Assembly: GCA_963721815.1 (NCBI GenBank) | Contig: CAVRLO010000015.1 | Location: 76,163 to 140,162 of the forward strand | Direction of reading: 5' to 3' | DNA length: 64,000 nucleotides | Origin: an uncultured Candidatus Rokubacteria bacterium | GTDB taxonomy: Bacteria > Methylomirabilota > Methylomirabilia > Rokubacteriales > CSP1-6 | Part shown: piece by piece, positions 835 through 59,750 of the stretch | How the letters are laid out: each line of letters begins with the position of its first letter | Numbering within the stretch: the first letter of the stretch is position 1 | Notes under the pieces: model-generated | Seen by the model: only the letters and a program-made list of their open reading frames with translations | What the model was told of the DNA's origin: nothing | The model's database searches: none | Made by a program: the position numbers and the translations under genes

Positions 835-2181
835 ATGCTTTCCAGAGAGGACAATGAGCTGCTCTGCCGGGTCGGGCGCGGCACGCCCACGGGTGATCTC
901 CTGCGCCAGTACTGGATCCCCGCGCTCATGATCGAGCGAGCTCCCGGAGCGAGACGGCGCCGCCCGTTCGCGTCCGGCTCCTCGGCGAGAATCTCATCGC
1001 CTTCCGGGTGACGTCCGGCAAGATCGGGCTGATCCAGAACCACTGCCCGCACCGCGGCGCGTCGCTCTTCTTCGGCCGGAACGAAGAGGAAGGTCTGCGC
1101 TGCGTGTACCACGGCTGGAAGTTCAGCTGCGAGGGGCACTGCGTGGACATGCCCAACGAGCCGGAGGAGAGCAACTTCAAGTCGAAGATCCACGCCACGG
1201 CCTATCCGTGCGTCGAGCGCAACGACGTCATCTGGACCTACATGGGCCCGCGCCGGACGCCGCCGCCCTTGCCCGACATCGAGCCGAACATGCTGCCCGC
1301 GGGCGAGTACGCCGTGCAGAAGGTCCTGCGCGAGTGCAACTGGTTCCAGGGGCTCGAGGGCGACATCGACACGAGCCACCTCGGCTTCCTGCACCTCGGC
1401 GCCGTCAAGCCCGAGCAGACGAAGCCCGGCACGTTCGACTACTACAACGTCGCCGACCGCGCCCCGAAGTACGAGGTGGTCGACACGGAGTTCGGCACCT
1501 CGTACGGCGCCTATCGGCCCGCCGAGGCCGACAGCTACTACTGGCGCATCGCGCACTACCTGTTTCCGTTCTTCACGATGATCCCGACGGGCATGCTCGG
1601 CATGCAGGTGCTCGTGCGCGCCTGGGTGCCGATCGACGACGACCACATGATGTTCTGGAGCTTCACGGCGCCGCGCTCGCGCGTGGGCACCGGGGCCGCA
1701 GGCGGCGCGTCGGGGCTCAACGCCGGCGGACGGTCCGTCGCGGCGGCTGGCTCGCGGGCGGGGGGCTTCGAGTTCCTGCCGGACACCTCGGACTGGACCG
1801 GCAAGTTCCGCCTGACGCAGAACAAGGACAACGACTACCTGATCGACCGCGAGGCCGCAGCGCACCGACAGCTTCACGGGCATCGCCGGCATCCACCAGC
1901 AAGACCAGGCCGTCACCGAGAGCATGGGCCCGATCTACGACCGGACGCAGGAGCACCTCGGCACGTCCGACGCGATGGTCATCCGCACGCGCCGCCGCGT
2001 GATCAACGCCGCGCGGGCGCTCCGTGACAACGCCACGACGCCGCCCGGCGTCGACGACCCGACCGTCTATCGCCACCGCTCGGGCGGCGTCATCCTGCCG
2101 CGCGACGCCGACTGGCTCGAGGCCACCAGGGGGTTGCGGCGGGCATTCGTCGAGGCGCCGCCAGAGAAGATCACGCGATGA
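835..2181 (+). CDS. Rieske non-heme iron oxygenase alpha subunit, phthalate 4,5-dioxygenase-like; frameshifted near 930-960 and 1860
   Basis: AGGAGG RBS then ATG 835 (MLSREDNELLCRVGRGTP); Rieske motif CPHRG...CVYHGW; 'EGDIDTSHLGFLH'; C-terminal 'QEHLGTSDAMVIRTRR'. Confidence 0.85.
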
Positions 2182-3125
2182 CGGCGGGGTCGGGGACGAC
2201 CGTCCTCAAGACCGCGGTCGCCAGCTACGCGCACACGAAGGCGCTGAAGGACGGCAGCGTCACGGCGCCGGGCGTCCGGCTCGATCACGTCGAGGTCAGC
2301 CCGATCGTCGCCGCGTTTCGGCGGATGGTCCGCACGCTCGAGTTCGACGTCTCAGAGATGGCCATCACGACGTACCTGACGGCCAAGGCCCATGGCAAGG
2401 CGTTCACCGCGTTGCCGGTGTTCGTCATGCGGCAGTTCCACCACTCGCCGATCGTCTACAACGTGAAGTCGGGCGTGAAGGCGCCCAAGGACCTCGAGGG
2501 CAAGAAGGTGGGCGTGCGCGCCTATACCGTCACGACCGGCGTCTGGGCGCGCGGCATCCTCGCCAGCGAGTACGGCGTCGATCTCGACAAGGTCACCTGG
2601 GTGGTCGTGGACGAAGAGCACGTGCAGGAGTACAGGAAGCCCGCCAACGTCGAGGAGCGGCCGGGCGCCAACCTCGGCGAGATGCTGGTGAAGGGCGAGC
2701 TGGCGGCCGCCATCGGCGTCGGCGCCGTCGACTCGCCCGACGTCATGTCCTTGCTCGTGCACCCACGCGAGGCGGAGGCGGCGTGGTACCGCAAGACCGG
2801 AATCTATCCCGTCAACCACACGGTCGTCGTGAAGGATTCCTTGCTCCAGTCCGATCCCACCCTGGGACCGCGTCTGTTCGGCGCCTTCAAGGACGCGAAG
2901 GCCGTGTTCCTGAATCAGCTCGCCTCGGGCGCGACCTTGCCGGCCGACGCCCAGGCCGTCGCCCAGCGCCGCAGCGTGGTCGGCGACGATCCGCTGCCGT
3001 ACGGCCTGGCCAAGAATCGCAAGGCGCTGGAGGCGATCATCCAGTACGCCCGCGACCAGAAGATTCTCCCGCGCGCGGTCACGCCCGAGGAGATGTTCCC
3101 CCGCAATACCCTGGACCTCGAGTAG
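2178..3125 (+). CDS. 4,5-dihydroxyphthalate decarboxylase-like protein (periplasmic-binding-protein type 2 fold)
   Basis: 'EFDVSEMAITTYL', 'KDLEGKKVGVRAYTVTTGVWARGIL', 'IYPVNHTVVV'; ATGA overlap with the Rieske gene. Confidence 0.75.
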   Translation: MTAGSGTTVLKTAVASYAHTKALKDGSVTAPGVRLDHVEVSPIVAAFRRMVRTLEFDVSEMAITTYLTAKAHGKAFTALPVFVMRQFHHSPIVYNVKSGVKAPKDLEGKKVGVRAYTVTTGVWARGILASEYGVDLDKVTWVVVDEEHVQEYRKPANVEERPGANLGEMLVKGELAAAIGVGAVDSPDVMSLLVHPREAEAAWYRKTGIYPVNHTVVVKDSLLQSDPTLGPRLFGAFKDAKAVFLNQLASGATLPADAQAVAQRRSVVGDDPLPYGLAKNRKALEAIIQYARDQKILPRAVTPEEMFPRNTLDLE

Positions 3126-6395: not shown

Positions 6396-7235
6396 ACGGC
6401 GTCATCCGGGCCCTCGAGCAGGGCAAGACCGCTTTCGTCGGATTCGGCTCGGTCGACATCGAGACCGCCAGCGCGCTGGCTGCCTCGAACCTGGACGGCG
6501 TGGCCTTCGAGATGGAGCACGCGCCGATGAGCGCCCCCGCCTTGCGCGACGCGCTCCAGTACATGCTCGACCGCCGCCAGATCCTCGACTCCGGCACCCT
6601 CGCCCCGAAGGTGACGCCGCTGGTACGCATTCCGCCGAACGGCGGCGAGATGAACCAGTGGATCGCCAAGCAGGTGCTCGACATCGGCGTGTTCGGCATC
6701 ATCTTCCCGCACGTGAGCACGGTCGAAGAGGCGCGCAACGCCGTCAGCGCCTGCCGGTATCCGCGCCTGCCCAAGCGCGCCCGCTACCAGCCGCCGGGAT
6801 TCGCGGCGACGCCCCGGCGCGCGCCGCGCGCTACTGGGGGCTCTCGCAGCAGGAATACTACGCCCGCGCCGACGTGTGGCCGCTGGCGCCCCAGGGCGAG
6901 ATCCTGGCGATCATCCAGTGCGAGGACACGCGGGCGATCGAGAACCTGCCGCGCATGCTCGAGGAGGTGCCGGGCATCGGCGTGGTGCTGATCGGGGAAG
7001 GGGACCTGAGCCAGGAGCTCGGCCATCCGCGCGAGTACGAGCACCCGGTGGTCGCCGAGGCCATCGAGCGAATCTTAAGATCTGCAAGGACCACAACGTG
7101 CCGTGCGGCCACCCGCATCCGGACGCGAAGAACATCGAGCGCCTGATCGCGAGCGGCTACCGCTTCCTGATGCCGAGCACGCCGCGGTCGTTCGGAGTGC
7201 TCGAGCAGGGGCGCAAGCTCGCCGGCCGGATCTGA
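6374..7235 (+). CDS. HpcH/HpaI family aldolase; frameshifts near 6800 and 7075
   Basis: 'FEMEH', 'PLVRIP', 'KQVLDIGVFGIIFPHV', 'VLIGEGDLS'. Confidence 0.8.
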
Positions 7236-48836: not shown

Positions 48837-49592
48837 GGCGAGCCCTCCTTCCACTAGGGCGACTCTATACCCCGGTTTCGGAGAGGCTTTGCAGACGCGC
48901 GAGGGGGAGATCACGCGGCGGAGCGAAGATTGTCGGCGGGCGCGCCCGAAGCGCTGTCTGCGTGCTTCTGCGGCGCGCTGGTGGCGAAATTCACGACAGC
49001 AGGCCGGCGTGCCGCGCCCGCGGTCGCGCGAGGCTGTCAAGTGTCGACTTTAGTGGACACGATTAACGTGATGGATGCTGTGGACGCTGTGGACCGGTGG
49101 ACGCGAACGGAATGCGGCCGTACGCGTATGCCCGATAACGCTGGCGAGTAACCTTGGATTCACGACCGTTGAACAGCACGTGATTGAGCCGGTCGATTCC
49201 CGCGCGGTCGTACCGCTCGGTGGCGTCGCGCTAAAGAGCCACAAGGCGATCCACAACCTGCTCAACGAGATCGGCCGGGCGGCGCGCGAGGCTTGCCCGG
49301 GAGTGACTGTCGCCCATGCCAGCGGGACGGTGCCGCTGCGTCCGTCCGCGTACTGGACAGACACGGCTCGCGGTGTCGACGAATTGTGACGGAACGCCGC
49401 TCCGTCCGAGTATCGGTCAGGACGTACTGTCCTCGGTCGCGGCGGTCGAAAGCGATCCGATGACGTTCATAAACTCTCCGACCCACGCTGGCGCCGCGTG
49501 GACGGCTCCCGCACAATCGCACGCGTCGTTGACGTGCCCTCGTCTTCAGAACGATGCTGATATCTGGCGGCGCATTCGCGCGGAGGCAAGCC

Positions 49593-49826
49593 ATGAAGCC
49601 TAGGCCGGCAAGCCGAATAGGTAAGATCTTCGCCGATGGTCGTCAGATCGATGAAGCATTGCGCTTGGCCGCCCGTGACGCCATCCGAAAACACGCGCTC
49701 CATGACGCGCCCATCGTCGTTTGGCGTGATGGTCGTATCGCCTGGGTGCCCGCTCGGGCGCTGACCTCGAAGACCTCGCGGAAGGCAATGCGAACCGGCA
49801 AGCGCTCATCCAAGCGAGGACGCTGA
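49593..49826 (+). CDS. Small ATPase-partner protein, copy 3
   Basis: 'IFADGRQIDEALRLAARDAIRKHALHDAPIVVWRDGRIAWVP'; preceded by an ATPase C-terminal remnant NDADIWRRIRAEASHEA*. Confidence 0.7.
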   Translation: MKPRPASRIGKIFADGRQIDEALRLAARDAIRKHALHDAPIVVWRDGRIAWVPARALTSKTSRKAMRTGKRSSKRGR

Positions 49827-52800
49827 ACGATCGGGCTCGGGCGTCTGAGGAGCCTTGCGCCTCTTCCGCCGTTCGTGCAAACTCTCCAGCAGCACATAGA
49901 ACACCGGCACGAACGGAATCGCCAGGAGCGTCGAGGCAAGCATGCCGCCGAACACCACCGTGCCGATGGCCTGCTGACTGGCAGCGCCTGCCCCGGAGGC
50001 CACCATCAGCGGGACCACACCCAGAATGAAGGCGAACGAGGTCATCACGATGGGGCGGAATCGGCGCCTGGTCGCTTCGACGGCCGCCTCCGTGATGGAC
50101 ATACCCTCCCGGTGCAGGTCCCGAGCGAACTCCACGATGAGGATGGCGTTCTTGCTCGCGAGCGCGATCATCAAGACCAGACCGACCTGAGTGAACAGGT
50201 TGTTGTCGTAGCCGCGGCTCATGAGCGCCAGGAGCACTCCGACCAGGGCGATGGGGACGACGAAGATGACCGCGGCGGGAGACGTCCAGCTCTCGTACAG
50301 GGCGGCCAGCACCAGGTACACGAGGGCGAGGGAGAGGGCGTAGATCAAGTAGGCCTGGTAGCCGACCTTCTTCTCCTGATAGCTCGTCGAGGTCCAGTCG
50401 TACGACATGCCCTCCGGCAATGTCTGGGCGGCCAGCTGTTCCATGAGAGTCAGGGCCTGTCCGGAGCTGAACCCCGGCGCGGCGGAGCCGAAGATGGCCG
50501 CCGCCGGGTAGAGGTTGTAGCGGGTGACCAGCTCGGTGCCCTGGACGCGCTTGACCTGGATCAGCGTGTTCAGCGGGACCATCGCCCCGTTCTGGTTGCG
50601 GACGTACAGATGTCTCAGATCGTCGGGCTCGAGACGGTAGCGGCTGTCGGCCTGGATGTAGACCTGGAAGACCTGGTTGAAGCTGTTGAAGAAGTTGACG
50701 AACGACGAGCCCAGATAGGATTGGAGCGCCTCGAACACGCTCGCGGGCTGGACCTGCAGCGACTCCGCCTTGGTCCGGTCGATGTCCAGGTAGAGCTGAG
50801 GGCTGCGATAACTAAAAGTGGTCGCGAGGCCTCGCAGGCTCGGATTGGAATTTGCCGCCTGCACGAGCTCGCCGGCGTTCCGCTGTAGCTCGGCCAGGCC
50901 CAGGCTTCGGCGGTCCTCCACCATCATCTGGAAGCCGCCCGTCTGGCCCAGGCCGCGGATCGGCGGCGGAATGGCGACGAAGAGAAAGGCTTCCTGGATG
51001 TCGCTCAGCTGGCGGTTGAGGTCGGCGACGATCCGGTCCTGGCTCAGGGCCTTGCCGCGTTCCTTCCAGCCCTTGTACACGACGAACGTCGCCGAATAGT
51101 TCGGCACGTTCGCGAAATCCAGAACCGAAAGGCCGCCGATGGTCACCCAGGCATCGACGCCCTCGGTTCGCCGGAGGATGGCGTTGACCTTTTCGGCGAC
51201 CTCGCGCGATCTGGGCTGCGATGAGCCTTCCGGCAAGACGGTCACGATGATCGCGTAGCCCTGGTCCTCGGTCGGGAGGAAGCCGGTGGGCTGGCGTAGG
51301 AATCCCCAGGCGGTCACGGCCACGATGACGACGAACACGATGGACATGAGCGCGGGCCGCTTCACCATCCGGCTGACGACTCCCACGTAGAAGTCGGTGC
51401 TCTTCTGAAACGCCCGGTTGAAACCTCGATAGAACACGTTGGGTGGTTTGTTGCCGCGAGGTCTCAACCACATCGCGCACTGGACCGGCTTCAAGGTCAG
51501 CGCGTTGAGGGCGCTGATGACGGCGGTCGCGGCGATGACGAGCGCGAACTGGCGGAAGATCTGACCGGTGATGCCCGGCAGGAACGCGGCCGGCAGAAAG
51601 ACGGCGACGAGGGCCAGCGTGATCCCGACGACCGGTCCCGTCAGCTCCTGCATGGCCTTGATCGTGGCGTCCTTGGGAGACATCCCGGTGTCGATATAGT
51701 GGGCGCTGTTCTCCACGATGATGATCGCGTCGTCCACGACGATGCCGATGGCCAGGATCAGCGCGAACAAGGTCATCAGGTTCACGGTGAAGCCCAGCAT
51801 GGCCATGGCGATGAACGCGCCGATGATCGTGACCGGTACGGTCGTCGCCGGCACCAGCATCGCCCGCAAGTTTTGCAGGAAGACCAGGATGACGATCAGC
51901 ACCAGCACGCCGGCGATGAACAGGGTCTCGTAGACGGCGCGGATCGCCTCGCGGACGAACAGGGTGGTGTCGTAGCGGATCGCGTACTTCATGCCCTCGG
52001 GGAACTGCTTGCTCATGTCGGCCATGGCCGCGTAAACGAGATTGGCGACCTGAATGGCGTTGGCGCCCGGCAGGGCGAACATCACGATCTGCGCCGACTT
52101 GTGCCCGCTGAATCTCGAAAAATTGCTGAAGCTCTGCTGGCTCAGGTCCACTCGGGCGACGTCGCGCAGTCGCACCACTTGTGGCGCCGTGCCGGTCGCG
52201 TTCTTGACGATGATGTCCTCGAACTGGCTTGCGTTGGAAAGCCGGCCGAGGGCGTTGATCGTGAACTGAAAGGGTTGAGCGTCCGGCACCGGGGGGGCGC
52301 CGAGCCGGCCGGCCACGACCTGGACGTTCTGGCCCTGGATGGCGCTCAGCACATCGGCGGTCGTGATCCCGAAGCTCTGGAGCCTTTTCGGATCGAGCCA
52401 GACCCTCATGCTGTAGGGACCGGCCCCGAAGATTCTCACCTGGCCGACTCCCTGGATCCGGGCTAGCGGGTTCTGCAGATTGATGAGCGCGTAATTCGAG
52501 AGAAAGATCTCCTCGAACCGGTCGTCGTCGGAGTAGAGGCTGGCGACCAGCAGAATGTTCGGCGAGACCTTTCGCACGTTGACGCCCTGCGCTTGAGCGC
52601 CGCCCGGAAGCTGGGACACCGCGCCGTTGGCGAGGTTCTGGACCAGGGCCAGCGACGTGTCGAGCTCCGTCCCGACGTCGAACGTGACGGTCAGGGTGTA
52701 TGTGCCGTCACTCGAGCTGACGGACGACATGTAGATCGAGCCTTCGACGCCGTTGATCGCTTGCTCGAGCGGCTGCCCGACCGTCGCCGCGACGACCTCG

Positions 52801-52964
52801 GCACTCGCCCCGGGGTAGGACGAGGTCACCTGGATGGTCGGCGGGACGATCTCGGGATACTGGGCGACGGGCAAGATGTACAGGCACACGGCCCCGATGA
52901 TGACGGTGATGAGCGCGATGACGTTGGCGAAGATGGGCCGTTCGATGAAGAACGCGGAGATCAT
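49806..52964 (-). CDS. RND efflux permease (HAE1)
   Basis: 'FFIERPIFANVIA', 'AIGIVVDDAIIIVEN', 'KNAILIVEFA', 'RFRPIVMTS'. Confidence 0.95.
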   Translation of the reverse strand: MISAFFIERPIFANVIALITVIIGAVCLYILPVAQYPEIVPPTIQVTSSYPGASAEVVAATVGQPLEQAINGVEGSIYMSSVSSSDGTYTLTVTFDVGTELDTSLALVQNLANGAVSQLPGGAQAQGVNVRKVSPNILLVASLYSDDDRFEEIFLSNYALINLQNPLARIQGVGQVRIFGAGPYSMRVWLDPKRLQSFGITTADVLSAIQGQNVQVVAGRLGAPPVPDAQPFQFTINALGRLSNASQFEDIIVKNATGTAPQVVRLRDVARVDLSQQSFSNFSRFSGHKSAQIVMFALPGANAIQVANLVYAAMADMSKQFPEGMKYAIRYDTTLFVREAIRAVYETLFIAGVLVLIVILVFLQNLRAMLVPATTVPVTIIGAFIAMAMLGFTVNLMTLFALILAIGIVVDDAIIIVENSAHYIDTGMSPKDATIKAMQELTGPVVGITLALVAVFLPAAFLPGITGQIFRQFALVIAATAVISALNALTLKPVQCAMWLRPRGNKPPNVFYRGFNRAFQKSTDFYVGVVSRMVKRPALMSIVFVVIVAVTAWGFLRQPTGFLPTEDQGYAIIVTVLPEGSSQPRSREVAEKVNAILRRTEGVDAWVTIGGLSVLDFANVPNYSATFVVYKGWKERGKALSQDRIVADLNRQLSDIQEAFLFVAIPPPIRGLGQTGGFQMMVEDRRSLGLAELQRNAGELVQAANSNPSLRGLATTFSYRSPQLYLDIDRTKAESLQVQPASVFEALQSYLGSSFVNFFNSFNQVFQVYIQADSRYRLEPDDLRHLYVRNQNGAMVPLNTLIQVKRVQGTELVTRYNLYPAAAIFGSAAPGFSSGQALTLMEQLAAQTLPEGMSYDWTSTSYQEKKVGYQAYLIYALSLALVYLVLAALYESWTSPAAVIFVVPIALVGVLLALMSRGYDNNLFTQVGLVLMIALASKNAILIVEFARDLHREGMSITEAAVEATRRRFRPIVMTSFAFILGVVPLMVASGAGAASQQAIGTVVFGGMLASTLLAIPFVPVFYVLLESLHERRKRRKAPQTPEPDRSASSLG

Positions 52965-54123
52965 TGCCCGGCTTTGCCGGGGGCGGGGGCGTGTCGCCTT
53001 CACGCTGCGGCGTGACTTGTCGTCCGGGCGCGGCTCTCAGCAGACCGTTGACGACCACCGATTCCTTCCCCGTGAGACCGTCGTCGATGGCGCGCAGGGC
53101 ATCCACGGCGGAGCCGGTCTTGACGCCGCGGCGCTCCACGACGTTCTTCTCGTTCACCACCAGGACAAAAGCGCCCTGTTGGTCGTTGCCGACCGCTACC
53201 TCGGGCACCAGCAATGACGCTTTCTGCCCGAGCGGCACTCGCACCCGTGCATACAACCCCGGGAGAATCCGTCCGTCCTTATTCGGGAGGATGCCCCGCA
53301 TGAGCAGGCTCCCGGTGGTGGTCGTCAGGCTGATGGCGGCAAAGTCGAGGTGCCCCTGATGGGGGTAGCCGTCCTCACCGGGCAGGCCGGCCTGCACCGA
53401 CCACGTCCGCGAATCCGCCGCCCCAGGGATCCCGCCCGCGCGCCTGCGCAGGCGGGCCAGGTCATAGTCGCTGATGTTGAAGTAGACGTAGATCGGGTCG
53501 ATCTGGTTGATCGAGGCCAGGACGGTGTTTCCGCCTGACCCGACCAGGTTGCCGGGATCGACCTGCCTTCGGTCCATTCGCCCGTCGAACGGAGCCGCGA
53601 CCAGCGTGTAATCGAGATTGAGCTTCGCCAGGTCTCGCTGCGCCTCCGCCGACTTCAGGTTGGCCTGCGCCAGATCACGCTGGTAGCGCCAGTTGTCGAG
53701 ATCGGACTGTGTCCCCGCGTTGTGCTGAATCAAGTTCGTGAAGCGAACGAATTGGGATTCGGCGAACAGAAGCTGCGCCCGGAACTGCGAGATGGCGGCT
53801 TCGGCTTGCCGCAAGTTGTCCTCGTACGTGTTGCGCTGGATGACGAAGAGCGGCTGGCCTTTCTTGACGATTTGCCCGTCCTGGAACAGCACCTGCTCGA
53901 GATATCCCGCGACGCGGGCGACGAGCTGCACGGTGTAGATGGCCTGCGTGTTCCCGGTGAGCTCCAGATAGTCGGTCACCGTCCGCTGCTGCGGCTGGGC
54001 GACCGTCACCTTCGGGGGAGGCGGCGGCTGAGGCTTCGGTGTGTCTTTGCAGCCCGCCAGGAGCGCGGCGAGCGCGGATATCGTGATCCAGCCCGAGATG
54101 CGTGCGGTTCCGCGAAGGGTCAA
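52961..54123 (-). CDS. RND periplasmic adaptor (MFP)
   Basis: Lipobox LAGC; 'ARVAGYL', 'APFDG', 'PEVAVGNDQQG'. Confidence 0.85.
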
Positions 54124-54125
54124 GG

Positions 54126-55723
54126 CTACCAATCCGGAAGCCGAGGAGCGGACTCGGGTTGACGGGAGGCCGGCAGATTGTAGCTCGCGGGGGCGAGCAA
54201 CCCGCCCCAGTTCGTGCGCCGCTCCATTTCCGCCTTGATCTCGGGAGGCACCAGATCCTGGCCTTCCCTGATCTCCCAGCCGCCGCCAAGCGCACGATAG
54301 ATCCCGACGAGGCTCGTGGAGATGTTGCCCAACGTGCTCGCCAGGCTGTCCTGCTGAGCCAGGAGCGTGTTCTGCGCGGTCAGGACGGTCGTGAAATCCG
54401 TGATGCCTTCCCGGTACTGGATGACGGCCACGTCGAGAGCCTTCTTCGCGGAGGTGACGCTTTGGGCGAGCAACTCCGCCCGGTCCTGTGAGCGGAGGAA
54501 GGCGACCAGGTTGTCCTCGACATCCCGCTGGGCCGAGATCACCGCGTTCTGATAGCCGATGACCAGCGGCTGGAACGCCGCATCCTGGGCGCGGACGTTG
54601 TTCGTGATCTGGCCGTAGTTCAGGATGTTCCACTGAACGGAAGGGCCGGCCTGGATCGAGCGGGCTCCCCACCGGAACATATCGCTGAGCTTGAATCGCC
54701 CCAGATCTGTCGACACGAAGACCAGGCTGCCGTTCAAGCTGAAGACCGGAAGCAGATCGCCCTTGGCCACTCCGATCTGGGCGGATTGAGCGGCGGCCTG
54801 AAGCTCGGCGCTGCGGACGTCCGGTCGGCGGCGCAGCAGGTCGGCCGGGATGCCGACGATGACCTGGGGCGGTGACGCCGGGATTCCCGAAGAACCCGCC
54901 AGGACATCGCTCAGATCGCTCGGCGGCATGCCCAGCAGCACGCTGAGGGCATCCTGGGCCTGGCGCCGTTGCGCCTCGAGGGGCGGGATGGAAGCCTGGG
55001 TGTTCAGGAGCACGTCCTGGCCTGCTCGACATCCCGTTGTGTCGCCGTGCCGAATCTGAACCGCGCGTCGGTGATTTTCAGGATCTGGTCCTGGGCGTCC
55101 GCGTTCTCCCTTGCGATGCGAATGCGTTCTTCGGCGGTTCGGATCGCGATGTAGTCGTTCGCGACGTCTGCCGTCAGCGCCACCAGCGCGCTGTCGTAGT
55201 CCGCGAGTGTCGACAGCAAGGTGGCTTCGGCCGACTGGATGTTGCGCCGGATTCTTCCCCAGAAATCGAGCTCCCAGCTGGCCTGGACCCCGACCTGGGA
55301 CTGCCAGAAGCTGAGAGCACTGCCGCCGGAGATGGCCCCCGTCTCGGCCCGATCGCTCGTACGGAAGTACTCGACGGAACCGATGGCCTGCTGCGTTTGC
55401 GGGAAAATGCTACCGCTGGCGATCCCCAGCTGGGCTCGGGCCTGGAGAACCCGCACACCGGCCTGTCGGAGCGAGAGGTTTTCTCGGTAGGCCCGCTCGA
55501 CGAGGCGATTCAGGACCGGATCGTCGAAGGTCGTCCACCAGTTCCGGTTCGTGGCCGATTCGACGCTGACCCGTCGGTCCTTGCTCTCGAGCCAGCTGTC
55601 CGATACGGCCACCTCTGGCCGCTTGAAGTCCGGCCCGATCAGGCATCCGGTGAAGAGCAGGAGCACCGGAGCCAGGACGACGGCCGCACATCGGCTGCGA
55701 TGTGACCGCCTCATGTCATACAC
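54126..55723 (-). CDS. NodT/OprM-family outer-membrane factor; frameshift near 55020
   Basis: Lipobox FTGC-LIGPDF; 'WELDFWGR', 'LLRRRPDVR', 'YRALGGGW'. Confidence 0.85.
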
Positions 55724-55938
55724 GCTCGCGCACTCGATCTCGAAGTCAGGAAACTGAGCTCGGGGAAGACCCGAGCGTCAACGGGAGCACCCGATGCGCC
55801 CGATGCGCTCACGATACACCTGGCGTGAACCCCCCGGTCCTTTCAGCCCGATCAGGGATGGCCCGGGTTGCGCAGCGTGGACGGTGCGCGCACAATCGCA
55901 CGCGTCGTTGATGGACCCCTCGCCGTCAGGAGGAGAAG

Positions 55939-56853
55939 ATGCCGTACAGAATCTCGCGACTCGGCACGGTGGAGATTCGTAGCCTCGACCTCGACCGCGA
56001 TCTCGATTACTACGTCAATGTCCTGGGGCTGCAGTTGACGGCCCGCGAGGGGCGAACCGCGTACCTCAAAGGCTGGGACGAGCGGCACGCGTACTCGGTG
56101 ATGCTGACCGGAGCGGACCAGGCGGGAATGGCTCGAATGGCGTTTCGGACCGTCGATCCCGAGGACCTCGACTACTACGAGAACCGGCTGCGGAAGTTCA
56201 GTGTCAAGTACGACGTGATCCCGGAAGATTATCGCCGCGGCCGCGCTCTGCGCTTCACCGCGCCGTCGGGCCATGTCGTCGAGCTCTACAACGAGATGGA
56301 TTACACGGGTAACCTGTTGCCGACCGTCAATCCCGCTCCGTGGCCGGAGGGCCTCAAAGGGATCGCGCCTCCCCGTCTGGATCACACGCTCGTGACCGCG
56401 CCCGACCCCCCCAAGGCCATCCAGTTCTTCCAGGAAGTGCTCGAGTTCCGCGTGAGCGAGATGCTCGTCAACCCCGAGGGCGTGCCGGTGGCGGCATGGC
56501 TCTGGCAACGGCCCGCGCCCCACGACATTGCGATCGTGCCGGGTCGAGCTGGGGGATTTCACCATGCCGCCTTCACCGTGGATTCCGCCGAAGCGCTCTT
56601 CCGCGCGGCGGACATCCTGACGATGCACAAGGCCCGCATCGACTATGGGCCCGGCCGCCATGGGATCACGCGGGGCACGACGATCTACTTCTTCGATCCG
56701 TCCGGCAACCGCCTCGAGGCGTTTGGCGGCTACACGGCCTACCAGATGGATCCGGACTGCCGGGCGATCAAGTGGACGACGGACCAGATCGGACCAGCCG
56801 TCTTCTACTACTCCCAGGAGCTGAACGAGACCTTCCTGAGCGTCTACACATGA
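55939..56853 (+). CDS. xylE: Catechol 2,3-dioxygenase (type I extradiol dioxygenase)
   Basis: 'RLDH', 'PHDIA', 'FHHAAF', 'GPGRHGITRG.TIYFFDPSGNRLE'; GGAGG RBS. Confidence 0.85.
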   Translation: MPYRISRLGTVEIRSLDLDRDLDYYVNVLGLQLTAREGRTAYLKGWDERHAYSVMLTGADQAGMARMAFRTVDPEDLDYYENRLRKFSVKYDVIPEDYRRGRALRFTAPSGHVVELYNEMDYTGNLLPTVNPAPWPEGLKGIAPPRLDHTLVTAPDPPKAIQFFQEVLEFRVSEMLVNPEGVPVAAWLWQRPAPHDIAIVPGRAGGFHHAAFTVDSAEALFRAADILTMHKARIDYGPGRHGITRGTTIYFFDPSGNRLEAFGGYTAYQMDPDCRAIKWTTDQIGPAVFYYSQELNETFLSVYT

Positions 56854-56856
56854 GCC

Positions 56857-57231
56857 GTGGTCGCTGACTGTAGCTACACGGTCCGCTTTAGCCCGCTTGG
56901 CGACACCGTGGCCTGTCGAGATGGAGAGACCGTTTTAGCCGCGATCATGCGGTCCGGGGCCAAGGTTATGTTCGGCTGCCGCGGTGGTGGTTGTGGCACC
57001 TGCAAGATGCGTCTGATCTCGGGCCGTGTGGACCACGGCCGCTGCTCGGCGGCGGTTCTGCCGGAGACGGAGAAGAGAGAAGGCTCGTTCCTGTCCTGTC
57101 AGGCACGGCCCCTCACCGATCTTGTTGTCGAGCTGACTGAGACGAACCGGTACCGCAAGCCGTCCGTCCCGTGGCTGGTAGCGCATCCGCCCGGAAGCCG
57201 TTATCCTCTCCGCGAGGGGGAAACGCGATGA
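56857..57231 (+). CDS. xylT: Plant-type 2Fe-2S ferredoxin, XylT-like
   Basis: 'GCRGGGCGTCK...LSCQARP'; directly after the extradiol dioxygenase. Confidence 0.75.
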   Translation: MVADCSYTVRFSPLGDTVACRDGETVLAAIMRSGAKVMFGCRGGGCGTCKMRLISGRVDHGRCSAAVLPETEKREGSFLSCQARPLTDLVVELTETNRYRKPSVPWLVAHPPGSRYPLREGETR

Positions 57232-58160
57232 TGAAGATGACGATCGAGCCGGTGTCCGCCTTCAGTAGCCTCGACGTGCTGGTGGCCATGGAGGAAGGTC
57301 TGTTCAGCGCCGAGGGGCTCGATCTCCGGATGGCGTCGCGCGAGTCCCGCGACATCCGCTCCACCGCGGAAGGGACCCTGTCGAGCCCGGTGACGAATCA
57401 GGGACGGCTTCACGAACGAGGCGAAGCCACGATGTTCCAGGGGTGAGAGTGCGGCAATAACCGCCGGGTGGCGGAAAGCCGAGTGGGTTCGCTTCAGATC
57501 GGACGTCGGTCGATGATCGTCTGTGCTGCCCTCGTCGTTCCTCCCGACTCGAGTGTCTACGTGCCTCAGGAGCTGGCGAACCGGAAGGTGGGGCTGGATT
57601 ACGGCAACGGTACCGCCTACGCCGGGCTCCAGATGCTCGAGGGCGCCGTGCCGCGGGAAGCCATCACGACCTGCGCGGCCGTTACCCATCCGGGCGAGCG
57701 GTACGCGGCCATGATGAGGGGCGAGTTCGACGCGACGGTATTGCAGGAGCCATGGATCACAGTGGCCGAGAAGGCCGGCTGCCGTCTGGTCTCGACCACG
57801 TTCTTCCACGGCACGTGGGTCGGCGGCCCCGACCTCGATCCCGCGCTCTACGCCGCATTCCTCCGCGGCGTCATCCGGGCGGTCCGTCGCATCAAGGCCG
57901 ACAAGCGGCGGTACGTGTCGTACTTCAAGGAAGGCTGGGCCGCGGGGGACCCCGCGGTCCAGGCGCTGACGCCCGACGACTTCAATCTCGGGCGCATCCA
58001 GCTCAGGGAGCCGACCCCGATTCCGGAGGACGAGGCGCGCTGGGCCTGGGAGTGGATGGCGAGCTGGGGCGTGCTCCACGGAACGTTTGACGCCACCGCC
58101 CAGATCAATCGCAAGGTCGAGCGAGAGGCGCACGAGCTGGCGTTCGCCGCGCTCTCATGA
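57228..58160 (+). CDS. NitT/TauT-type ABC substrate-binding protein with in-frame TGA (candidate selenoprotein, 310 aa)
   Basis: ORFs 57171-57446 and 57468-58160 share one frame; TGA 57444-57446 is codon 73; 'ELANRKVG', 'GEFDATVLQEPWITVAEKAG'. Confidence 0.75.
57447..57481 (+). promoter_or_regulatory. Bacterial SECIS-like stem-loop
   Basis: CGGC-AATAA-CCGCC-GGGT-GGCGG-AAA-GCCG; apical loop starts 19 nt after the UGA. Confidence 0.65.
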
Positions 58161-58162
58161 CC

Positions 58163-58560
58163 TCAGGTGTCGCGCCGGAGGCGGCGTAGCAGCGCGGTCG
58201 GGGCGCAGTGATCGTGGCCCTCGCGGGCAGGCGCGCGCGCCGTTCGTGGTAGTACACGGTATCGAAGGCGCCGATGGCGCCTTGCAGGGCAAGGAGCCAC
58301 AGGGCCGTTGCGATCACGCCCAGATCCCGACGCGGACGTGTGAGCCTTGTCCGTCGACGCAGGCCTCTCGGGCCTCGACCCTGGGAGCGATCCACCGCGG
58401 GAGTGGAATGCGCAGCCGGCCGACCCGCGGCCGGGGTGAAACTCGAACCTACCGGTGGCCACGTCATCTGTCAGGTGTAGCGAGCGGATCGCCGGGTGCA
58501 GGTCGAGCCACGCGGGACCTAGCAGCCGGGGATACAGAGCGGCGGGAGGGTGATCCATCC
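58163..58560 (-). pseudogene. Fused remnants (DUF4166-like N-terminus and a membrane-protein N-terminus)
   Basis: 'LYPRLLGPAWLDLHPAIRSLH' and 'LWLLALQGAIGAFDTVYYHE' in different frames. Confidence 0.4.
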
Positions 58561-58619
58561 TCCGCCTACGATGGTTGGGCATTCCGCGGTCCGTCGCCGA
58601 AAATAGCGACGTGACCGGC

Positions 58620-59082
58620 ATGACGGCGATGCTCGCGCTCGGGCTCGTTGCGCTGACAGTTCCCGCTTTGCTCATCAACCTTTACTTCGCGTCGCTGATG
58701 CTAGGCCGGTGGCCCCGGCTCCGTCACCGCCTGGGCGTGCTGTTCACGACCTGCGGCGCGGACACGTCGTCTTGTGCCGTCGTGGTGCGGACGCCCTATG
58801 CCCGGCTGTTCGGTGGAGCACCAAACGTCCACGTCGGTATCGTCTGGAACCTGGCGTTGCTTGGTCTCGCGCTCTCGTGGATGCTGACCGGTCGGCTGGC
58901 GGTGCCATGGCCCTACTTGATCGTGGCGGGTGCGAGCGTGCTGGTCGGGCTTTACCTCGTCCGGGCCCTCGTCGTCGAGCTCAGACAGCCGTGCCCGCTC
59001 TGAATCGCTGGTCACGCCCTGCACGCGGCGGTCGCCGCACTGCTTGGAATCGTGTGGCCCCGGCGCGCGCTTCTCACGGGTG
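58620..59082 (+). CDS. Vitamin K epoxide reductase (VKOR) family protein with C-P-L-UGA motif (candidate selenoprotein); 3' end uncertain
   Basis: Loop Cys pair 'CGADTSSC..V.TPYARLFG', TM helices, 'QPCPL*IAGHALHAAVAALLGIVW'. Confidence 0.7.
59021..59043 (+). promoter_or_regulatory. Bacterial SECIS-like stem-loop
   Basis: GCA-C-GCGGC-GGTC-GCCGC-AC-TGC; apical loop starts 26 nt after the UGA. Confidence 0.55.
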
Positions 59083-59222
59083 AGAAGGCGAGGAGCTTGG
59101 GGGCGGACACCGCGGCACGCGGGGCGGGGGGCCGCACGCAAACCTTTTGGGGATTGAGCCCGAAGTCCCGCATTCTAGACATGACGCCATTTCAGACCCG
59201 GGACTCGAAGACGGAGATGTCC

Positions 59223-59750
59223 ATGTGGGATCTCGGCAACGTATTCACTGCGGCGCGGAAAGAGACCGTCACCGCGGAATATCTGGGCCGGCGCCTCGCG
59301 GACGAGGTCTGGAGGGACGTCCGTTCGCCGAAGGATCCACTCCCGACGACGTACGTGGCCTGGGAGTGGCTCATCATTCGAGCGTTCGTCGCGAGCCGCG
59401 CGGTCCACGCGCTCCTCGAAAGGAACGTCGTCGATCGGAACGTGGTCGATCGCACGGTCCGCGCCATGCAGGCCCGCCTCTGTCATCCCGCGCACTTCAA
59501 AACTCGGCATGCGCTGACGGCGTTCCGCGCGGTCGCCGAGCTGCGCTACCAGGAGTACCTGAACGCGTTCGACGTCTGGCGCACGCAAAAGGACGACGAC
59601 CAGCTGACGCGCGCGCTGGCGAGCCACGCCCTGACCGAGAACGCCGACTCCAAGGAAGTGCTCGATCTCTTCAGTCGCTTCGCCGCGTGCCTGCGGAAAC
59701 ACAACGAGGGACTCCGGATCAACCTGCACTTCAAGTTCAACGTGCGTTAG
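59223..59750 (+). CDS. Hypothetical helical protein
   Basis: GGAG RBS before ATG 59223; host-like codon usage. Confidence 0.5.
   Translation: MWDLGNVFTAARKETVTAEYLGRRLADEVWRDVRSPKDPLPTTYVAWEWLIIRAFVASRAVHALLERNVVDRNVVDRTVRAMQARLCHPAHFKTRHALTAFRAVAELRYQEYLNAFDVWRTQKDDDQLTRALASHALTENADSKEVLDLFSRFAACLRKHNEGLRINLHFKFNVR

Follow-up and report, generated by a model that had tools for sequence, protein, structure and literature searches.

A predicted selenoprotein gene and a catechol 2,3-dioxygenase-ferredoxin pair are probably independent units that became neighbours in a Rokubacteria genome

In the TOL plasmid pWW0 and related plasmids, the gene of the ferredoxin XylT is located upstream of xylE, the catechol 2,3-dioxygenase gene, and XylT is established as the protein that re-reduces the oxidised iron of this dioxygenase. 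Unrelated to these are several described proteins built on the binding-protein fold: the SsuA/TauA proteins of the NitT/TauT family, and two cytoplasmic proteins, DszB (2'-hydroxybiphenyl-2-sulfinate desulfinase), which uses a nucleophilic Cys, and THI5 (HMP-P, hydroxymethylpyrimidine phosphate, synthase). SaoX and SaoB (Haft and Gwadz; NF040735, NF040727) combine this fold with selenocysteine (Sec) at the would-be ligand place; Sao proteins have signal or lipoprotein signals, are encoded in a fixed nine-gene locus with an ATP-binding cassette (ABC) permease, occur in anaerobes and carry CU or UxP motifs (bioRxiv 10.1101/2022.07.06.499078). Here we describe a string of three genes that touches on both groups, in a 64,000-nucleotide (nt) stretch of DNA (the window) from an uncultured Candidatus Rokubacteria bacterium (GenBank assembly GCA_963721815.1, contig CAVRLO010000015.1, positions 76,163 to 140,162 of the forward strand; all positions below are those of the window unless a contig is named). 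The string lies on the plus strand. It consists of a gene for a catechol 2,3-dioxygenase-type extradiol dioxygenase (304 aa; 55939-56853, stop TGA 56851-56853), assigned by open reading frame (ORF) map, TIGR03211 and Pfam; a gene with a GTG start for an XylT-like plant-type [2Fe-2S] ferredoxin (124 aa; 56857-57231, stop TGA 57229-57231), assigned by Pfam Fer2; and a predicted selenoprotein gene, the Sec gene (310 aa; 57228-58160), assigned by translation, homologues, AlphaFold2 and Foldseek.

Our preferred reading, held at a probability of roughly 0.8, is that the dioxygenase-ferredoxin pair and the Sec gene are two independent genetic units which became neighbours in one Rokubacteria (Methylomirabilota) genome. 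Related Sec loci with a readable codon at the UGA position were collected using a single-protein query, giving 38 loci, 37 from species-representative genomes and one from a metagenome contig. The key linkage tests were performed by tblastn, which is independent of our own ORF calling (crude in GC-rich loci). With the window dioxygenase as query, no dioxygenase was detected within 6 kb of the Sec gene in any of the 38 loci, and a single weak Fer2 match was found near a Sec gene in the whole set, 1.6 kb away and on the opposite strand. The neighbours of the Sec gene change in almost every genome, even among orthologues that are 88-94% identical, and include CoA-transferases, luciferase-like oxygenases, amidohydrolases, S15 peptidases and Zn-dehydrogenases. 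None of the orthologous dioxygenases of four relatives (G006, G040, G015 and G010) has a Sec gene downstream. Four genomes of the same genus (G006, G015, G010 and G004) carry a Sec gene with TGA on a different contig from the dioxygenase, G040 has a dioxygenase-ferredoxin pair and no Sec gene, and a Sec gene without dioxygenase is present in five genomes of the genus and in other phyla. Neighbourhoods of homologues with Cys in place of Sec (P0125, P0126 and P0139, plus a paralogue of 46% identity from three genomes of the genus) had no recurring theme; the neighbours there include TctC-type binding proteins, IspG, amidohydrolases and luciferase-like oxygenases. Linkage between the Sec gene and the dioxygenase is thus not conserved, and their adjacency is lineage-specific.

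An earlier note on this DNA had suggested that the three genes form an operon for a selenium-dependent step in aromatic catabolism, a suggestion that the 38 unlinked loci and the separate contigs in the four same-genus genomes do not support. The same note had named three features of homologues that would speak against its proposal. One of them, the lack of linkage to dioxygenases, is what we found; a constant position beside ABC genes and the presence of signal peptides were not seen.

The two units can also be told apart in the DNA itself. When 55500-58700 was compared with relatives by blastn, a dioxygenase-ferredoxin homology block (55917-57155) and a Sec-gene homology block (57212-58156; it starts at 57212-57231, preceded from about 57177 by faint similarity in the leader) were obtained, placing the junction of the two blocks, as delimited by blastn against relatives and by short-word blastn, at 57155-57212. 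The join falls within the last approximately 25 codons of the ferredoxin gene, whose tail, unlike that of the relatives, runs to a TGA that overlaps the ATG of the Sec gene, so the overlap seems to have arisen incidentally with the join. For the ferredoxin stretch from about residue 101 to 124 the relatives have no counterpart, apart from a faint likeness between the tails (a shared Trp and a few other residues). Origin of the tail by a frameshift error was also considered; since the resemblance to relatives was only faint, the junction is given as a range. A join of this kind might equally have been made by the assembler, as a chimera of two real population loci at 57155-57212, and it is true that the genome is a metagenome-assembled genome (MAG) with frame breaks in several genes (selD and an outer-membrane factor) and that both homology blocks end right at the junction. 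However, the junction sequence is unique in the genome by short-word blastn, leaving no repeat to mislead an assembler, the GC content is even across the join, the ferredoxin ORF is uninterrupted at the junction and runs precisely to the start of the Sec gene, and gene contexts differ in nearly every relative anyway. A chimera is therefore judged quite improbable.

The layout of the string was as the earlier note had described it, with all coordinates confirmed. The spacer from the dioxygenase stop to the ferredoxin start is 3 nt (GCC), and the ATG of the Sec gene (57228-57230) overlaps the ferredoxin stop (57229-57231) as ATGA; both are given as assembled, in an assembly with frame breaks in other genes (selD and the outer-membrane factor). 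Neither a sigma-70-type promoter nor an intrinsic terminator was predicted in 55500-58900, and no Rfam family matched in 55500-59500. The intergenic region at 55724-55938 (plus strand), flanked on the ORF map by a divergent outer-membrane-factor gene and the dioxygenase gene, is the presumed promoter region of the string. Given the gapless arrangement and the lack of a predicted terminator, co-transcription of the three genes in this genome is probable. Equally, neither an adjacent ABC permease or ATPase gene nor a further meta-pathway gene was found among the ORFs of the window, a 595-aa downstream ORF having been left unscanned, and this statement of the earlier note stands for the scanned neighbours.

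Several observations weigh against the reading of two independent units. Among 17 genomes of the genus, five have both the Sec gene and the dioxygenase, five have the Sec gene only, none has the dioxygenase only and seven have neither, giving a one-sided Fisher p of about 0.04 for co-occurrence (hand-calculated). A tight ATGA overlap would also be expected of a selected operon, and the placement of the Sec residue in the ligand cleft of its protein, considered further below, is drawn from secondary-structure topology. As to the first of these, the five genomes with both genes are also the largest (5.7-7.2 Mb), two of the five being 9% contaminated; we read the co-occurrence as a gathering of accessory genes in large genomes and not as functional coupling. 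A true functional operon, in which the Sec protein was co-opted for catechol meta-cleavage as an enzyme or redox partner, for instance in processing a ring-fission product or in electron transfer to the ferredoxin or dioxygenase, would account for this weak co-occurrence, for the gapless arrangement of the genes with its stop/start overlap and lack of a predicted terminator, and for a cytoplasmic protein with a reactive Sec-x-Cys motif. It is nevertheless very unlikely, given the absence of linkage in all 38 related loci and in the four same-genus genomes that hold both genes, the existence of the G040 pair without a Sec gene, the Sec genes without dioxygenase in five genomes of the genus and in other phyla, and a junction that cuts the ferredoxin 3' end in the manner of a rearrangement accident. 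That the Sec protein serves catechol meta-cleavage in this particular strain we regard as very unlikely. The locus is a caution in this respect: a gapless string with an overlapping stop and start mimicked an operon, relatives show a recent one-off juxtaposition, and a selenium-dependent aromatic-catabolism step should not be inferred from the gene string.

The third gene, by all comparisons made, is to be regarded as a genuine selenoprotein gene. Between 57228 and 58160 its ORF contains a single in-frame TGA, at 57444-57446, which on the evidence of conservation, Cys homologues and Sec machinery is predicted to be read as Sec73 within the read-through motif FQG-U73-E-C75-GNN. Searching of 5.8 billion proteins gave 712 homologues, and the best 120 of the 712, all 188-234 aa long, lacked everything before the UGA. 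Pieces of the N-terminal part that stop at residue 72 occur as separate 'proteins'. As public entries are split before and after the UGA in this way, gene callers evidently cut the Sec gene everywhere. TGA was present at the Sec73 codon in 38 of 38 related loci, with both flanking frames open. These loci belong mostly to Rokubacteria/Methylomirabilota, and also to Acidoferrum, Entotheonella TSY1, Chloroflexota, Ktedonobacterales and Dormibacterota; the protein is common in soil and groundwater Rokubacteria and sporadic in Chloroflexota, Entotheonella and Dormibacterota.

An invariant Cys occupies the Sec73 column in 21 Cys-type homologues (24-40% identity; 18 of them full-length), within the motif A-C-E-W-G, and Gly76 and Arg80 are likewise invariant in the alignment of these homologues. 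Position 75 is Trp in the Cys homologues, so a possible Sec-Cys redox pair would be confined to the Sec clade. In a maximum-likelihood tree the Sec forms grouped as a single clade within the Cys forms (100/100 support), indicating a single Cys-to-Sec change. A Cys-type paralogue with the motif YNACEWGNYCR, 45-46% identical to the Sec form, was also observed in three genomes of the genus (loci L075-L077; G006:C435, G015:C87 and G010:C259), so that Sec and Cys versions coexist within one genome.

A candidate bacterial selenocysteine insertion sequence (SECIS) was located just downstream of the UGA by folding and by synonymous-site entropy. Its core hairpin, CCGCC-GGGU-GGCGG (57461-57474, plus strand), starts 14 nt after the UGA and has a 5-bp GC stem and a GGGU loop; in this genome it is prolonged by a lower stem (57452-57455/57478-57481). 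The hairpin stem was invariant in 10 of 12 diverse sequences. No compensatory change was found in the stems of these 12, because the stem hardly varies. Synonymous-codon entropy was 0.215 bits for codons 74-83 versus 0.972 for the rest of the gene, and codons 75-83 were the most frozen 9-codon window in the entire Sec gene. Frozen synonymous sites of this kind are the expected signature of an RNA element within a coding sequence, like a bacterial SECIS.

The genome also encodes the Sec machinery. On contig C20, selA (588.9 bits), selB (363.3 bits) and tRNA-SeC (C20:61004-61101) are clustered, and selD (130.6 bits), with its own TGA, is on contig C31. The selD gene (C31:86322-87259, minus strand) was seen to have its Sec codon in the motif SCAG-U-ASK and to contain at least three reading-frame changes in the assembly. 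Because many selenoprotein genes are intact, these frame changes are more likely to come from assembly indels than from decay of the gene, and indels of this kind would also account for the estimated completeness of the 7-Mb, 31-contig genome being as low as 66%.

If the UGA were instead a plain stop, the locus would encode a 72-aa peptide and a separate 230-aa protein, or would be a pseudogene, and the public gene calls do split the gene there. This reading can practically be dismissed. It would leave unaccounted for the conservation of the UGA and both flanking frames in 38 of 38 loci across phyla, the Cys at the Sec position in full-length homologues, the SECIS hairpin under synonymous-site constraint, the full set of Sec machinery, and a read-through protein that folds as one domain pair with a predicted local distance difference test score (pLDDT) of 92.

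The structure of the Sec protein was modelled with AlphaFold2 on the family alignment (pLDDT 92.1, predicted template modelling score 0.90). When the model was compared with the PDB using Foldseek, SsuA, the unnamed exported protein 3qsl, ThiY, DszB, THI5 and TauA were retrieved at probability 1.00 and template modelling (TM) scores of about 0.6-0.7, and on this model the protein belongs, by fold, to the NMT1/SsuA group of type II binding proteins. At the sequence level, homology to SsuA/TauA could be traced in lobe II and in the first beta-alpha unit (2x26, E 1.2e-7); the Sec73 region was not covered by the alignments to solved structures. No NCBIfam family matched at E <= 0.01, and the Pfam NMT1_2 score (18.6 bits) was below the cut-off of 24.7.

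The earlier note had reported no clear signal peptide, and our results agree with it. Beta-strand 1 starts at residue 2 of the model, the maximum 12-residue hydropathy within the first 40 residues is 1.7, versus 3.5 in an exported binding-protein control, and no hydrophobic N-terminal stretch was found in 23 family members (maximum 2.3, against the same control). The early first strand and the lack of a hydrophobic N-terminus indicate that the Sec protein is cytoplasmic.

In the AlphaFold2 model, Sec73 is the end of beta3 (residues 69-73) and is followed by a helix (74-82). In type II binding-protein folds the C-terminal ends of strands and the N-termini of helices line the inter-lobe cleft, and we infer from the model that Sec73 and Cys75 face the inter-lobe ligand site. 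A Sec at a beta3-helix boundary, aligned to an invariant Cys, would fit a reactive residue. We regard the Sec protein as probably acting in the cytoplasm, as an enzyme or a ligand handler. We tentatively suggest, as something rather less than an even chance, that it represents an uncatalogued cytoplasmic selenoenzyme family on a transporter binding-protein fold, with Sec73 (Cys in older relatives) as cleft nucleophile; if true, this would be the first Sec-dependent enzyme of the binding-protein fold.

The earlier note had also favoured an enzyme or redox partner over a transporter component. The part of this claim that stands is that the protein is no ordinary binding protein, as it lacks a signal, about 32 of the 38 loci lack a transporter, and DszB and THI5 have similar folds; the partnership with the dioxygenase or ferredoxin is unsupported. 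The remaining loci bear on another possibility, namely a cytoplasmic role alongside an ABC importer: the Sec protein might receive, process, chaperone or sense an imported metal or other ligand, bound via Sec73 and Cys75, and in this genome would have become separated from its transporter. Six of the 38 loci (L037, L041, L042, L052, L053 and L040) have the Sec gene beside an ABC importer, in five of the six directly downstream and on the same strand. The importer genes encode an ABC ATPase (ABC_tran and TOBE_2), an exported SBP_bac_6/8 protein and a fused double permease (L037 1958-6924), and the system in all six is of the Fe(III)/polyamine type with its own exported binding protein. Moreover, SaoB and SaoX have been proposed to bind metals through Sec/Cys (bioRxiv 10.1101/2022.07.06.499078). 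The role is nonetheless an unlikely one, though worth keeping in view: most loci have no transporter nearby, the single invariant Cys of the Cys homologues, with Trp for Cys75, would make for poor chelation, and no NCBIfam match to SaoX or SaoB was obtained. The importer-linked subclade is about 70% identical to the window protein, and its Sec gene was observed to be frameshifted in L052 and L053.

Compared with the described systems, the Sec protein shares with SaoX and SaoB the binding-protein fold and a Sec at the would-be ligand place. The structures 4NMY and 2X26, which SaoX is said to resemble (bioRxiv 10.1101/2022.07.06.499078), were also among the best structural matches of the Sec protein in Foldseek. 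It differs from the Sao proteins in having neither signal nor fixed neighbours, in its U-E-C motif, and in being found mainly in soil and groundwater Rokubacteria; the NCBIfam scan gave no match to NF040735 or NF040727, and none of the 38 loci had an SAO-like neighbourhood. DszB (2de2; Foldseek E 5e-13, TM 0.63) and THI5 (4h67; E 5e-12, TM 0.63) resemble it in being cytoplasmic and in fold, both at probability 1.00. The Sec protein differs from them in having no sequence similarity around the reactive residue and no sulfur- or thiamine-pathway genes near its gene, and the catalytic Cys27 of DszB probably lies near beta1 and not at the beta3-helix junction. SsuA/TauA share the overall fold (TM 0.68-0.70; SsuA 3ksx, E 8e-14, TM 0.70), and public annotations of homologues carry this name. 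Here the differences are NCBIfam scores far below cut-offs, the lack of a signal peptide and, mostly, of a permease/ATPase partner, and presumably also the small residues that SsuA/TauA have where Sec or Cys stands in this family.

A 2026 review of the prokaryotic selenoproteome names SaoX, SaoB and BtuF as binding-protein-type selenoproteins, none of the NMT1/SsuA type with U-x-C (PMC13188914), and the Sec protein is absent from both NCBIfam and the table of prokaryotic selenoprotein families in that review. Rokubacteria have recently been reported to have very large selenoproteomes, and 63 selenoprotein genes were predicted in a Methylomirabilota MAG (PMC13188914); the present family may already be in the unvalidated candidate lists behind that 63-gene prediction. 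What remains of value from the locus is a real selenoprotein, widespread in Rokubacteria and mis-annotated everywhere as two genes, whose reactive Sec in a cytoplasmic binding-protein fold makes it a tractable target for new selenoenzyme chemistry.

The other unit is more familiar. The dioxygenase scored 345.5 bits against NCBIfam TIGR03211 (catechol_2_3), passing the equivalog cut-off of 320.2, and Pfam detected Glyoxalase in two stretches together with Diox-like_N, corresponding to two vicinal-oxygen-chelate domains. Its translation contains H149, H209 and E260, the expected His-His-Glu iron triad, as well as H195, H241 and Y250; we take the former to be equivalent to the XylE Fe ligands H153, H214 and E265, and the latter to stand at catalytic-residue positions of XylE. 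The ferredoxin matched Pfam Fer2 (E 8.5e-16) and has the ligand pattern Cys41-X4-Cys46-X2-Cys49...Cys81. Orthologues of the dioxygenase with 93-94% identity were found in G006, G040 and G015, with partial ones in two more relatives, and a ferredoxin gene (59-71% identity) directly follows the orthologous dioxygenase in G040, G015 and G010.

The likeness to XylE-XylT thus includes a dioxygenase above the NCBIfam equivalog cut-off and a plant-type CX4CX2C...C ferredoxin alongside it, a pairing kept in relatives. It also extends to the best near-full-length plasmid match of the ferredoxin, a small ferredoxin of P. aromaticivorans pBN2 (37% identity) which sits just upstream of a catechol 2,3-dioxygenase gene. 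By analogy, the ferredoxin would be an XylT-type Fe(III)-reactivating partner of the dioxygenase. Unlike the plasmid systems, the ferredoxin gene here is downstream of the dioxygenase gene, the protein shares no more than about 37% identity with XylT-like proteins of plasmids, and no other meta-pathway genes lie alongside, here or in relatives. Genes of a meta-cleavage cluster (semialdehyde dehydrogenase or hydrolase, hydratase, aldolase) were absent among the scanned neighbours, and in the dioxygenase loci of relatives the genes found in their stead, as judged by start sequences without a family search, are for a Liv-type ABC transporter or a dienelactone hydrolase-like protein; the dioxygenase-ferredoxin module occurs without the rest of the pathway both in this genome and in relatives.

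The ferredoxin diverges much faster than the dioxygenase, with 52-71% versus 93-94% identity (L067; L068-L070). In G006 (L067, G006:C583, about 6970-7131), the ferredoxin beside the orthologous dioxygenase was found to be degenerate and decayed, with its cluster-binding cysteines gone; the gene after it is NMT1-like, unrelated and frameshifted. The genus may be able to do without the repair ferredoxin.

Under the preferred reading of two independent units, the first would comprise a dioxygenase performing extradiol ring cleavage and a ferredoxin that, by XylT analogy, would re-reduce its oxidised iron. The second would be a single-gene selenoprotein, in which SelB would read the UGA as Sec by means of the hairpin just downstream. 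The product would stay in the cytoplasm, with a two-lobed fold like that of the binding proteins for sulfonates and pyrimidines, and Sec73 would serve as nucleophile or redox centre and could form a selenenylsulfide with Cys75. Most likely the protein would act on, or hold, a small anionic ligand between its lobes, much as DszB does with a Cys in the same fold. We infer that the Sec is catalytic and that its substrate is unrelated to catechol cleavage.

The genes around the string are of other kinds. Downstream of the Sec gene lie a VKOR-like gene, unnamed ORFs, a DUF6789 protein and the 595-aa ORF. The VKOR-family gene (Pfam E 2.1e-8) is at 58575-59003 on the plus strand, 415 nt 3' of the Sec gene. 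A 'selenoprotein island' with this gene was considered and dropped, as the adjacency is absent from all 38 related Sec loci.

At the far end of the window, a Rieske-type oxygenase ORF (1008-2027) is followed by a binding-protein-fold ORF (2178-3125) that is '4,5-dihydroxyphthalate decarboxylase-like'. The latter was not among the Sec-family tblastn matches listed for this genome. The C-terminal third of the Rieske-type ORF is low-complexity sequence, which suggests another frame break.

Upstream of the string, on the minus strand, is a resistance-nodulation-division (RND) efflux operon (49806-55723). Its outer-membrane-factor gene (54126-55723, minus strand) appears as two overlapping ORFs, 55004-55723 and 54126-55013, and is split either by a frameshift or by a sequencing indel. 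A direct repeat of about 55 nt was also observed, with one copy at about 55872-55930, upstream of the dioxygenase start, and the other at about 49490-49550, past the far end of the efflux operon, so that the pair brackets the approximately 6-kb operon. By blastn and alignment, the copies are about 83% identical over 94 aligned columns, with a near-perfect 42-nt core, and the repeat could be either the mark of an efflux-gene insertion or a common regulatory site.

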